The position numbers and the translations under genes were made by a program. Under the pieces are notes generated by a model. It was given only the letters and a program-made list of their open reading frames with translations, was not told the DNA's origin and did not search any database. Shown here piece by piece: positions 42,676 to 54,545 of a stretch of DNA of 64,000 bases. The stretch is taken from IMG/VR virus record IMGVR_UViG_3300042898_000786, positions 1 through 64,000 of that record; one strand, 5' to 3'. The stretch comes from a virus. Each line of letters starts with the position of its first letter. The first letter of the stretch is position 1.

Positions 42676-42954
42676 TTACCAATTAAAATCATCTACCCAT
42701 ATTGGAGTACGCTCTCCGACATAGGCTGCAAAAGTATTATATTCTGCAAACTCAGAAGCCTCCTCGAAGTCTCCATCCATATCTTCCGCTAGTATGTCAA
42801 CAACTTTCGAACGTGAATATACCACTCGAAAAGAGTCTGGTTCAAAGCCAATGATGGCATCATCAAGTCCGTCGGCAAACAAAATCCCTTCGTCGTCGTG
42901 ACCCGAATATAGTTCTATAATTAATTCTCTTTTACTCATAAATTTGCGATTCAC
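42676..42954 (-). CDS. conserved phage protein
   Basis: ADGLDDAIIG...EA.EF.EYN...AYVGE.TP motif. Confidence 0.75.
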   Translation of the reverse strand: MNRKFMSKRELIIELYSGHDDEGILFADGLDDAIIGFEPDSFRVVYSRSKVVDILAEDMDGDFEEASEFAEYNTFAAYVGERTPIWVDDFNW

Positions 42955-46087: not shown

Positions 46088-46216
46088 TCATTTCTCTTTG
46101 GTGTTAAATTCATTTTCAGTATAGAAGTCCGTGCCTTCGTTGTCTTCTGGTTCGATGCCATTCTTAATCATATCAACGATTAACAACAGCTCGGTCATTG
46201 TCAGTTCTATTTTCAT
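46088..46216 (-). CDS. small acidic protein
   Basis: MKIELTM...EFNTKEK. Confidence 0.5.
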   Translation of the reverse strand: MKIELTMTELLLIVDMIKNGIEPEDNEGTDFYTENEFNTKEK

Positions 46217-52242: not shown

Positions 52243-52294
52243 GGTTAAGATGCCTCACGGCATTTCGGCTAATGTCAAGCCTCTTCAGTTAACC
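52243..52294 (-). ncRNA. type I hammerhead ribozyme (AUC site)
   Basis: GGUUAA CUGAAGA GGCU-UGACAUU-AGCC GAAA UGCC-GUGA-GGCA UC^ UUAACC. Confidence 0.9.
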
Positions 52295-52486: not shown

Positions 52487-52537
52487 GGTTAAGACCTACC
52501 GAAGTAGGTTTCGGGCATTAGCCCTCATCAGTTAACC
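52487..52537 (-). ncRNA. type I hammerhead ribozyme (GUC site)
   Basis: GGUUAA CUGAUGA GGGC-UAAU-GCCC GAAA CCUAC-UUCG-GUAGG UC^ UUAACC. Confidence 0.92.
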
Positions 52538-52716
52538 TGCCACTCAGTAAGCGTAGTCCAACCGAATGCCGTCACGATACCGCGCCTCTGAAGTTGTTCT
52601 AGAACTTTGTACTCTTTAGTGGTATCTGCACCCAAGACAGACTCTACGCTATAAAAGGGTATGTCGGTTGCGATGCCGTCAACATACTCGCGGAAAAAGA
52701 AATTGTAAGTGTTCAT
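52528..52716 (-). CDS. early hypothetical protein
   Basis: Stop TGA is the UGA of the ribozyme CUGA core. Confidence 0.6.
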   Translation of the reverse strand: MNTYNFFFREYVDGIATDIPFYSVESVLGADTTKEYKVLEQLQRRGIVTAFGWTTLTEWQVN

Positions 52717-52745
52717 ATTGTTTGGATTTAGTTATTGAATTGTGT

Positions 52746-53102
52746 TTAGTTTTGGTCTCTATGGATTACGTTCACCAACTGAATGGCGGCATTGTCACCG
52801 ATAAATTCACGGGCAGTGAGGTATGCCTCTGTGCGGCTCACTCGCAGTCCTCCTAAGAGGAAGTCGAATAGTGTGCCGTTCGTACTTTCTACGCTACGTA
52901 CAAATACCGACTGATTGGTCAGTAATTTCATTAGCGACTTCACTAATTCAGCCTTGGTGTCGAACGCTTTTCGGGCGCTCCCTTGGCGAAGATTACCGAC
53001 TTGTAGGAGTTTAGTGGTCTCTGCCTTGTCGGTGTAACGAATCAAGAATTCTACTTCGCGAGTTGTCTTTTTGCTTTGTAGTCTAACTTTGAACTCTCCC
53101 AT
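52746..53102 (-). CDS. first early protein
   Basis: Start refined to MGEFKV after A-rich leader. Confidence 0.6.
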   Translation of the reverse strand: MGEFKVRLQSKKTTREVEFLIRYTDKAETTKLLQVGNLRQGSARKAFDTKAELVKSLMKLLTNQSVFVRSVESTNGTLFDFLLGGLRVSRTEAYLTAREFIGDNAAIQLVNVIHRDQN

Positions 53103-53136
53103 TTTGATTTGATTTTTGAATTGATAAAAGAAAATT

Positions 53137-53186
53137 TGAGAGGGCGTTTGGTCTCGAACCAACGGCAACTAAATTGCTACGCCCCC
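53137..53186 (-). ncRNA. anticodon-less tRNA-like element
   Basis: GGGGGCG UA GCAA-UUUAG-UUGC C GUUGG-UUCGAGA-CCAAA CGCCCUC UCA. Confidence 0.65.
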
Positions 53187-53189
53187 AAT

Positions 53190-53590
53190 TGAACATCAAC
53201 TTAGGGGTACCTTATCGTGTCGTTATGTGCAGTGATGCCGTGGTTCCACCGCAACGAGGTTGTCAGTCCTAAGAAGCACTAAGGAGCAGATGAGCATCGT
53301 TGTATCCGTGTAGCATATGTTCTAAGAACTCATACGACCAAGGTCGCTCCGCTACACATCAACAAACCCGAACTCCATCACCACTCAGTAGCCGTACGTA
53401 CATCAAAGTGCCGTGCGGTCATCTACCTAGTCGTGCGGAACTCCGCTCGCTTAGTGGTCACTATGGTTATGGGTTCAAGCCCCAAGGCACGCTTTTCGCT
53501 TACCATCTTCCTCGGCCCGCCTTACGGCTTCGTCCTCGAGGTGACCTCAACTCGTTTCCCTATTTGGGCGCAGTCGGTCGGTGACACTGC
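53190..53590 (-). ncRNA. putative large structured leader RNA
   Basis: GC-richer than flanks, many nested hairpins, no credible ORF, directly downstream of promoter. Confidence 0.55.
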
Positions 53591-53622
53591 AATACTACAA
53601 CAATCTAGATACGTTTGTCAAG
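53590..53622 (-). promoter_or_regulatory. early promoter
   Basis: TTGACA ... TAGTATTG on minus strand. Confidence 0.55.
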
Positions 53623-54545
53623 TGTTGTTCAAAAAATAATTGTAAGTTGCTGAGAATCAGCGAGAAAAATTTCCACTCTGAATTATAATGTGTCTCTTAC
53701 GCGTGTCATATTAATATACTAGCACCTGAGAACATAAGCCTAGCCTAGCAAGCACGTGCCGCTCTAGTATGCATTGAGCGTAGTGGGGGGAAGTGGGTTG
53801 AAGTGGGAGTAAGTGAGAGTGCTTAGGGGTAAGGTGTGGGGATTGTTGGAGGGTTCTGAGGTACTCGAACCATAACCCAAAACTAGTTGGCGGTAGGGTA
53901 GGAGCGGAGCCTACAACGGAGCCAATTAACATAATATATATTATAGGATGCTTTTGGACACCGATTGCAACTCCGATACTAGAGCGAGGTAGGTCAAGGA
54001 TAGTAGCACGTCCTAGTATGGCTACCAAAAGGCTAAAACATTGCAAGTGAATCATTTAACACGGAGGGGCATACGTTCAGCATTCCGTTTCGGTTCTTGG
54101 CTTGTAACGCTATTATAGTACGATAATCCCCACGGTACGTATAACTCAAACCAGAAATGCGATAACCGCATCCCGGAAGATTGCGTAATTCTGTTCAACA
54201 CATATGCTTGTCCTTTGCAATGTGAACAGATTCTTATGTTATTTCTCGGAAGCGCATAGTTGCGCCTTTGCAAACGTAGTAAAAGTTAGAGCCTTGTTTG
54301 CAGTATCCGAATCAAGCTTTGGCCGGCTCCTTTTGCGCGGGGCGGTTTGGCCGCCCGCTTTTTCCGCCGTCTTAAGCGTTCTATTCGTTTTCGGTATTAG
54401 AAGCTTGCAGTCTATTAAGAGGAAGCTCTGCTTTAGCGAAGTTATAGTTAAAAATCGACATTAGCAAGTTTTTTACACACACTTATAATAGTCGTTATCA
54501 ATTAGTTGACTAATAACCTACTAATTTAGTATGTGTTTATTCTGC

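Follow-up and report, generated by a model that had tools for sequence, protein, structure and literature searches.

What does a tRNA-like fold that has no anticodon arm do in front of an early gene of a phage? We have addressed this question for an RNA element, here called the mini-tRNA, encoded in a stretch of 64,000 nt (positions 1 to 64,000 of IMG/VR record IMGVR_UViG_3300042898_000786), which we refer to as the window. The record encodes a large terminase subunit, a primase-helicase, a ribonucleotide reductase and very large virion proteins, and its source is an uncultured freshwater crAss-like phage. An earlier sequence-only reading of the locus had proposed two functions for the element, a processing signal between a leader RNA and the mRNA or a decoy for tRNA-targeting defence nucleases, and had named covariation in homologues as a check on the fold.

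Results

Structure of the mini-tRNA

The mini-tRNA is encoded on the minus strand and reads, from 53186 to 53137, GGGGGCG UA GCAAU-UUA-GUUGC CG UUGG-UUCGAGA-CCAA A CGCCCUC UCA. It consists of the following parts.

53140-53186, minus strand: mini-tRNA core (sequence, fold, covariation in six variants, covariance model)
53186-53179 with 53147-53140, minus strand: closing ("acceptor") stem, 8 bp
53177-53165, minus strand: side hairpin, 5 bp
53164-53163, minus strand: CG linker
53162-53148, minus strand: T-like arm, 4 bp, with a T-loop-like 7-nt loop UUCGAGA at 53158-53152
53137-53139, minus strand: 3' tail UCA (N73-C-A, not CCA; sequence)

The core of 47 bases represents the top half of a tRNA only. 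A cloverleaf with an anticodon arm is not formed, and just 2 nt (CG) separate the side hairpin from the T-like arm. Folded in isolation, the element forms a three-way junction (dG -20.4 kcal/mol, z = -3.15), and one of 200 shuffled sequences folded equally well. In a 461-nt fold of the leader the mini-tRNA persists as a separate 3' domain, and in one context fold, of 171 nt, the minimum-energy structure does not contain it. In the 171-nt fold, CCCC at 53207-53204 pairs with the 5' strand of the acceptor stem; we rejected this pairing as not conserved, the counterpart of CCCC being AACCC in L122, L129 and L141, CCGG in L075 and CUAG in L127.

Covariance model R1 has a single match in the whole window, the mini-tRNA, with 87.7 bits. 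A loose descriptor for an acceptor plus T-arm is expected to match about 1.35 times per shuffled genome, so the motif alone proves nothing and its significance lies in conservation and covariation. ARAGORN, run with default and relaxed settings on the window and on the whole 75.8-kb record, found no tRNA or tmRNA genes, the relaxed run giving scattered false positives only. The window element had no match in Rfam, either at the gathering threshold or at E<=10, including the tRNA (RF00005) and self-cleaving ribozyme families, and blastn against the INPHARED phage collection gave zero matches.

Variants and covariation

Homologues were collected by pattern scans and by a terminase-anchored search, and six distinct variants were obtained from related uncultured freshwater crAss-like phages. 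The module of leader and mini-tRNA is present in near-identical contigs (L006/L130 and L129, and also L122, where U54 is changed to C). The module of L141 is 82% identical and those of the L075 group and of L127 are about 76-80% identical, while L137 is a distant form, its terminase being 79% identical. The alignment (A4) was guided by a covariance model, since MAFFT misaligned L137.

Covariation was indeed found. Across the six variants, under which lie about three to four independent lineages and among which the L137 row was aligned by the model itself, 98% of the cells are standard pairs, and both sides have changed in 8 of the 17 pairs. With the partners slid as a control, 42-58% of the cells paired and zero to two pairs changed on both sides. 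The side hairpin occurs as GCAAU/GUUGC, GCACU/GGUGC and ACACU/GGUGU, the second pair of the T-stem as U-A, G-C or A-U, and the eighth pair of the closing stem as U-A, G-C or G.U. In L137 the acceptor stem is re-coded as GGAGGUG/CACCUCC, and GGGG-UUCGUGA-CCCC is retained. Because these compensatory changes affect both strands, selection acts at the RNA level, and by this comparison the mini-tRNA fold is under selection and is not a product of chance. The tRNA-like three-way junction without an anticodon arm, as described by the sequence-only reading, is thus borne out on the minus strand by both the isolated fold and its conservation in the six variants.

A 7-bp acceptor-like stem followed by U8-A9 had also been described. 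We confirm the stem, with a G.U at its second pair in the window, but it comprises 8 bp rather than 7, as U8-A40 covaries: U8 most likely pairs with A40, giving an 8-bp stem and a 4-bp T-stem. Since pair 8-65 covaries and 49-65 does not, the stack is best given as 8 + 4 = 12 bp. This coaxial acceptor/T stack under a 7-nt loop is found in all six variants, with covariation in both helices. The constant features are GGUUCGNGACC and the invariant pair G1-C72; the five closer variants also share U-1 and an invariant trailer UCAAA, which is ACUAG in L137. The loop of hairpin 2, UUCGNGA, is retained even in L137.

Further pattern scans of IMG/VR for L137-type and L014-type elements returned the source contigs only, and a protein-anchored search with the 66-aa downstream gene as query yielded no additional loci. 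A 19-mer search of metagenomes gave eight matches, three of which fall in GC-rich coding DNA and are due to chance. Scanning IMG/VR for the promoter motif gave mainly unrelated loci and helped with L075 and L058 only.

The GC-rich stem, and in the window a U-rich run beginning 6 nt past it, could also be taken for an intrinsic terminator or attenuator, and the tRNA-like shape for a decaying tRNA gene or an attP remnant. However, the U-run is missing in L075, L127 and L137, so that no conserved U-tract directly follows the stem, and a terminator scan reports none at the mini-tRNA. Integrase and tRNA genes are absent, which speaks against a tRNA-gene remnant or attP, and compensatory changes are not expected of a pseudogene or an att site. 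As the U-tract is not conserved and the compensatory changes show selection at the RNA level, we regard all of these as very improbable.

Resemblance to tRNA and tmRNA

The residues of the tRNA tertiary core (U8, G18G19, T54-A58) are not kept across the six variants. Position 8, which is U or G (G in three variants), covaries with position 65; A58 occurs in two variants and U58 in the other four, and position 54 is C in L122. A GG resembling G18G19 is absent from the side-hairpin loop of all variants examined. The T-arm motif GGTTCRANYCC, by which plant-mitochondrial t-elements were found in a motif screen (PMC1920247), is matched at 10 of 11 positions by GGTTCGAGACC of the window, and the relatives' GGTTCGTGACC lacks A58. 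The form GGTTCRANNCC occurs four times in the window, with 0.58 copies expected, and the mini-tRNA copy alone stands in a stem context. The other three, at 53472-53482, 42839-42849 and 46149-46159 (all plus strand), have no flanking stems and look like chance occurrences; one of them is antisense to the leader.

The combination of G3.U70 (the alanine identity pair), A73 and CCA that marks tmRNA and mini-tmRNA was not found. The window shows G2.U71, G3-C70 and U73 and ends in CAA, whereas L137 shows A3-U70 and A73 and ends in CUA. Against the Rfam tmRNA model, the L137 element scores 18.6 bits and lines up with the two ends of the model, at the tRNA-like domain. This is an architectural likeness and not membership, since the element lacks G3.U70, CCA and an mRNA-like domain.

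Position in the early operon

The mini-tRNA lies in a stretch of about 600 nt without ORFs (53103-53710). The order on the minus strand is promoter, leader of about 400 nt, 13-nt linker, mini-tRNA, 34-nt spacer and the ATG at 53102.

53592-53621, minus strand: promoter TTGACA, 18 nt, TAGTAT(TG) (sequence)
53187-53586, minus strand: structured, GC-rich leader non-coding RNA of about 400 nt (RNAalifold, RNA-library contigs)
53103-53136, minus strand: A/U-rich unstructured 5' UTR (sequence)
52746-53102, minus strand: 118-aa gene (MGEFKV...; ORF list)

The element had been placed about 35 nt upstream of a start codon, in agreement with its 3' A at 53137, 34 nt before ATG 53102. The gene behind it had been called the first early gene. 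This holds relative to the promoter at 53621-53592 but not overall, as three ORFs on the same strand lie upstream. The homologues of the 118-aa product begin at residue 1.

Each genome has one mini-tRNA, and it invariably stands right after the long leader. Four different first genes occur behind it: MGEFKV in the window, MNTYNF in L006 and L141, METYKI in L122 and L129, and MIFIPAK in L075, L127 and L137. The A/U-rich spacer between the mini-tRNA and the start codon measures 27-35 nt in all carriers, whichever gene follows. Since the first gene varies and the spacer is constant, the mini-tRNA belongs to a promoter-proximal module and not to one gene. When 52700-53136 of the window is compared with L006:1011-1060, MNTYNF directly follows the mini-tRNA in L006, as it does in L141, and the 118-aa MGEFKV gene is inserted between the two in the window, with breakpoints in the A-rich spacers before the ATG. 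By this alignment, the genes behind the mini-tRNA are subject to cassette shuffling.

This arrangement bears on a function in trans: the element could titrate a tRNA-binding protein, of the host or of a defence system, as a decoy or sponge, or it could be a small RNA to which CCA is added. The acceptor branch is certainly tRNA-like. Yet the element lacks both an anticodon loop and G3.U70 (it has G2.U71 in the window and A3-U70 in L137), only one copy exists, without a dedicated promoter, and positions 8 and 58 vary. We therefore consider a tRNA mimic acting in trans quite improbable. The more specific proposal of the sequence-only reading, a decoy for tRNA-targeting defence nucleases, gained no support: the anticodon loop, which is the target of known anticodon nucleases, is missing, U8 and A58 vary, and the only copy sits in cis at a transcript junction.

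Hammerhead ribozymes in the same slot

Four relatives (L002, L003, L004 and L005) lack the leader, and a type I hammerhead ribozyme precedes their homologue of the 118-aa gene. The order in these phages is promoter, small ORF, type I hammerhead, the same 23-nt sequence before the ATG, and the gene, and the hammerhead cut site lies 26 nt before the ATG. The shared 23 nt are the last 23 nt of the UTR at 53103-53136. As far as can be judged from this synteny, hammerhead and mini-tRNA share one slot before the same gene. Type I hammerheads are also found further down in the operon of the window.

52487-52537, minus strand: type I hammerhead, same operon (by eye, own descriptor, and a weak match of 18.6 bits to Rfam HH9)
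52243-52294, minus strand: second type I hammerhead, same operon (by eye, own descriptor)

All 13 hammerheads found in this phage group (window, L002, L003, L005, L130 and L141) have the identical stem I GGUUAA/UUAACC and differ in stems II and III. The L075-type and L137 loci yielded no hammerhead, though the mini-tRNA is present there.

The equivalence of the slots raises the question whether the mini-tRNA is itself a self-cleaving ribozyme of a new class, as it is known that, close to phage genes, one class of small ribozyme can replace another. The hammerhead core CUGANGA or GAAA is absent from it, and it matches no Rfam ribozyme family. Moreover, its junctions contain few nucleotides, and these vary: the first junction has A, C or G and the second either CG or GUAAA. 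Conservation is confined to a hairpin loop. Because the junction nucleotides vary, there is hardly any chance, in our view, that the element is a ribozyme.

The slot comparison likewise touches on the idea that the mini-tRNA is kept on the mRNA as a 5' stabiliser or translation-context element against 5'-end-dependent decay, with or without a 5' cut by RNase P. A GC-rich stem at the 5' end is a known stabiliser design, and the distance to the start codon is constant (27-35 nt) whichever gene follows. For this purpose, however, a simple hairpin would suffice, and a tRNA-shaped 12-bp stack with a T-loop-like cap would not be needed. In addition, cleavage by the hammerhead of the relatives leaves no such structure on the mRNA. 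We hold a stabiliser to be improbable.

The leader RNA

In L075, L127 and L141 the -7 box of the promoter is a perfect TAnnTTTG (TACGTTTG), which is the Bacteroidota -7 consensus. The leader behind the promoter has three covarying domains, followed by the 13-nt linker ending in GUUCAAUU, which is single-stranded in the RNAalifold prediction. With five homologues, RNAalifold gave 137 pairs, 34 of them compensatory, and the mini-tRNA formed an independent fourth domain. The 5' domain (domain 1, 53586-53454) shows 93% identity between lineages whose divergence is otherwise 20-25%. By its pattern of substitutions the leader is a genuine structured RNA, and it had no match in Rfam. We also considered the leader as an RNase P RNA on account of short resemblances (GAGGAAG.. 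and CCAAAUAGGG), and rejected this, as there was no Rfam RNase P match at E<=10.

The leader of L137 (L137:4395-4860, minus strand) is purine-rich, and blastn against the window leader aligned the promoter only. Covariance model R2, built for domain 1, did not match it with filters and gave a weak match of 8.4 bits without filters. The L137 leader shares GAUGGUAA... with that of the window and carries GAGGAAAGU.

Six metatranscriptome runs from lakes and rivers contain the leader. Contigs from four metatranscriptomic libraries of four studies cover the leader only, with lengths of 266-342 nt and a depth of up to 43. They span from 53226, 53249, 53285 or 53304 to 53568-53578, and never include the mini-tRNA, the gene or the promoter. 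Towards the mini-tRNA they break off 40-118 nt short of the predicted RNase P site, on its upstream side, and contigs cannot show RNA ends; likewise, 53103-53225, which they leave uncovered, is a hole and not evidence of absence. These data argue for a leader that accumulates as an RNA of its own, whose start lies close to the predicted start site.

The main rival to a cleavage signal is that the three-way junction is the 3'-terminal domain of the leader itself, left uncut and serving as an exonuclease cap or as a tRNA-mimicking protein handle. The mini-tRNA could be such a domain, because it has never been found apart from a long leader; it stands directly behind one, once per genome, in all six variants. 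The leader is moreover a covarying structured RNA, and the UUCGNGA loop retained even in L137 suggests specific recognition. On the other hand, RNAalifold separates the mini-tRNA as an independent domain behind a single-stranded linker, a hammerhead fills the slot before the same gene in the relatives, and in L137 the mini-tRNA is present behind a leader that is not recognisably similar in sequence. The leader contigs never extend into the mini-tRNA, which is weak evidence. Taken together, we find a leader domain rather unlikely.

Discussion

Of the two functions suggested by the sequence-only reading, the processing signal between leader and mRNA has gained ground, because of the compensatory fold, the fixed boundary between leader and mRNA, the hammerhead in the same slot and the contigs that contain the leader only. 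That cleavage takes place, by which enzymes and at which exact phosphodiester bonds, is what we infer from these observations. We give an even chance to the mini-tRNA being a cis signal at which host RNase P and/or RNase Z cut, so releasing the leader from the mRNA. Transcription from the Bacteroidota-type promoter near 53600 would yield one RNA comprising the leader of about 400 nt, the mini-tRNA and the early mRNA. RNase P would then cut between U53187 (U-1) and G53186 (G+1), leaving a clean 3' end on the leader. The other cut, after U53139, would be made by RNase Z or a related 3' activity, and the mRNA would keep a 34-nt A/U-rich unstructured 5' UTR, an outcome comparable to that of the hammerhead in sister phages. 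The excised mini-tRNA of about 48 nt might gain CCA and persist as a small RNA.

Against a cleavage signal, the contigs end short of the predicted RNase P site and not at it, the tRNA core residues are not conserved, the tail is not CCA, the mini-tRNA is always accompanied by a long leader, and the lineages compared are few, about three to four. As for the enzymes, Pfam and PHROGs searches with the neighbouring early proteins revealed no RNA-processing enzyme, and an RNase Z family model found none in the phage and matched the Bacteroides thetaiotaomicron control genome. A broader proposal, which we put forward more tentatively and at somewhat less than an even chance, is that host enzymes release a stable, abundant leader of about 400 nt, as a counterpart of the MALAT1-mascRNA system, with a cutter that is interchangeable with the hammerheads of sister phages.

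If the mini-tRNA is cut as predicted, Bacteroidota phages would punctuate their transcripts by two interchangeable devices, ribozymes and tRNA mimics that borrow host enzymes, and the organelle principle of "tRNA punctuation" and t-elements would extend to bacterial viruses. In that case, cleavage would further fix where a new, abundant and highly conserved non-coding RNA of phages, seen in lake metatranscriptomes, has its 3' end, and would provide a compact natural host-dependent RNA-processing module for Bacteroidota. In the literature we found no publication on tRNA-like punctuation elements in phages. The principle as such is known from organelles, and what is new here is the link to a large conserved, apparently abundant leader, together with indirect RNA-library data.

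Other anticodon-less folds were observed in unrelated phages. An IMG/VR phage contig, L014, carries two tRNA-like folds without anticodon arms (L014:9908-9955 and L014:10712-10760, plus strand), which flank an ORF-poor, purine-rich stretch of about 750 nt. The second has G3.U70, A73 and a tmRNA-like 5' end (GGGGGCGUUAC). Neither fold has relatives in IMG/VR, and both are unmatched by ARAGORN and Rfam. A further unrelated phage contig contains a 59-nt tRNA-like fold without an anticodon arm (L073:768-826, minus strand), made up of an acceptor, a D-arm with GG in the loop and a canonical T-arm (UUCGAUU), and ARAGORN reports no tRNA at this locus.

Several known systems resemble the mini-tRNA in part, and among them plant-mitochondrial t-elements, MALAT1-mascRNA, tmRNA precursors and the C4 RNA of P1 and P7 are precedents for the proposed cleavage. 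Phage non-coding RNAs other than tRNAs are matured by host RNase P, namely the C4 RNA precursor of P1 and P7 and the M3 RNA of phi80. Unlike the module described here, these RNAs have other folds and involve neither a large leader nor an mRNA junction. The tRNA-like domain of tmRNA is a natural RNase P substrate without an anticodon, and the alignment of the L137 element to it counts in favour of a cleavage signal. Like the mini-tRNA, tmRNA (Rfam RF00023) combines an acceptor stem with a T-arm, has a reduced D region and lacks an anticodon arm, whereas the mini-tRNA has no G3.U70, encoded CCA, mRNA-like domain or pseudoknots, and the two strands of its acceptor stem are 33 nt apart and not about 300 nt as in tmRNA.

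Perreault et al. (2011) reportedly described clustered hammerhead ribozymes between phage and prophage genes. The mini-tRNA has in common with phage hammerheads the operon, the intergenic slot and the presumed cutting of polycistronic RNA, but hammerheads are self-cleaving and differ in fold, while the mini-tRNA would need host enzymes. For MALAT1-mascRNA and MEN-beta, Wilusz et al. (2008) are said to have found that RNase P, cutting at the 5' side, makes the 3' end of the non-coding RNA and that RNase Z frees the small RNA. Here, too, a long non-coding RNA is directly followed by a small tRNA-like fold. MALAT1 and mascRNA differ in being mammalian nuclear RNAs, and mascRNA has a short anticodon-like stem; no homology is implied, and for the phage element processing is predicted.

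Plant-mitochondrial t-elements, on which Hanic-Joyce (1990) is reportedly a source, resemble the mini-tRNA as non-canonical tRNA-like folds within longer transcripts. Their ends coincide with the 5' and 3' ends of mRNAs, which has been ascribed to the action of RNase P and RNase Z (Forner et al. 2007, PMC1920247). In contrast to these organelle elements, the mini-tRNA belongs to a phage operon, stands behind a large structured non-coding RNA and has predicted ends, and the loops of its relatives have U58. A close parallel for the stack comes from the 8/4 "allo-tRNAs", in which an 8-bp acceptor stem and a 4-bp T-stem form a 12-bp acceptor branch (Mukai et al. 2017, PMC5389517). They differ from the mini-tRNA in possessing anticodon arms, and they can be aminoacylated. 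The total stack of the mini-tRNA variants amounts to 12 bp in every case, the length found in tRNA acceptor branches and in the 8/4 allo-tRNAs.
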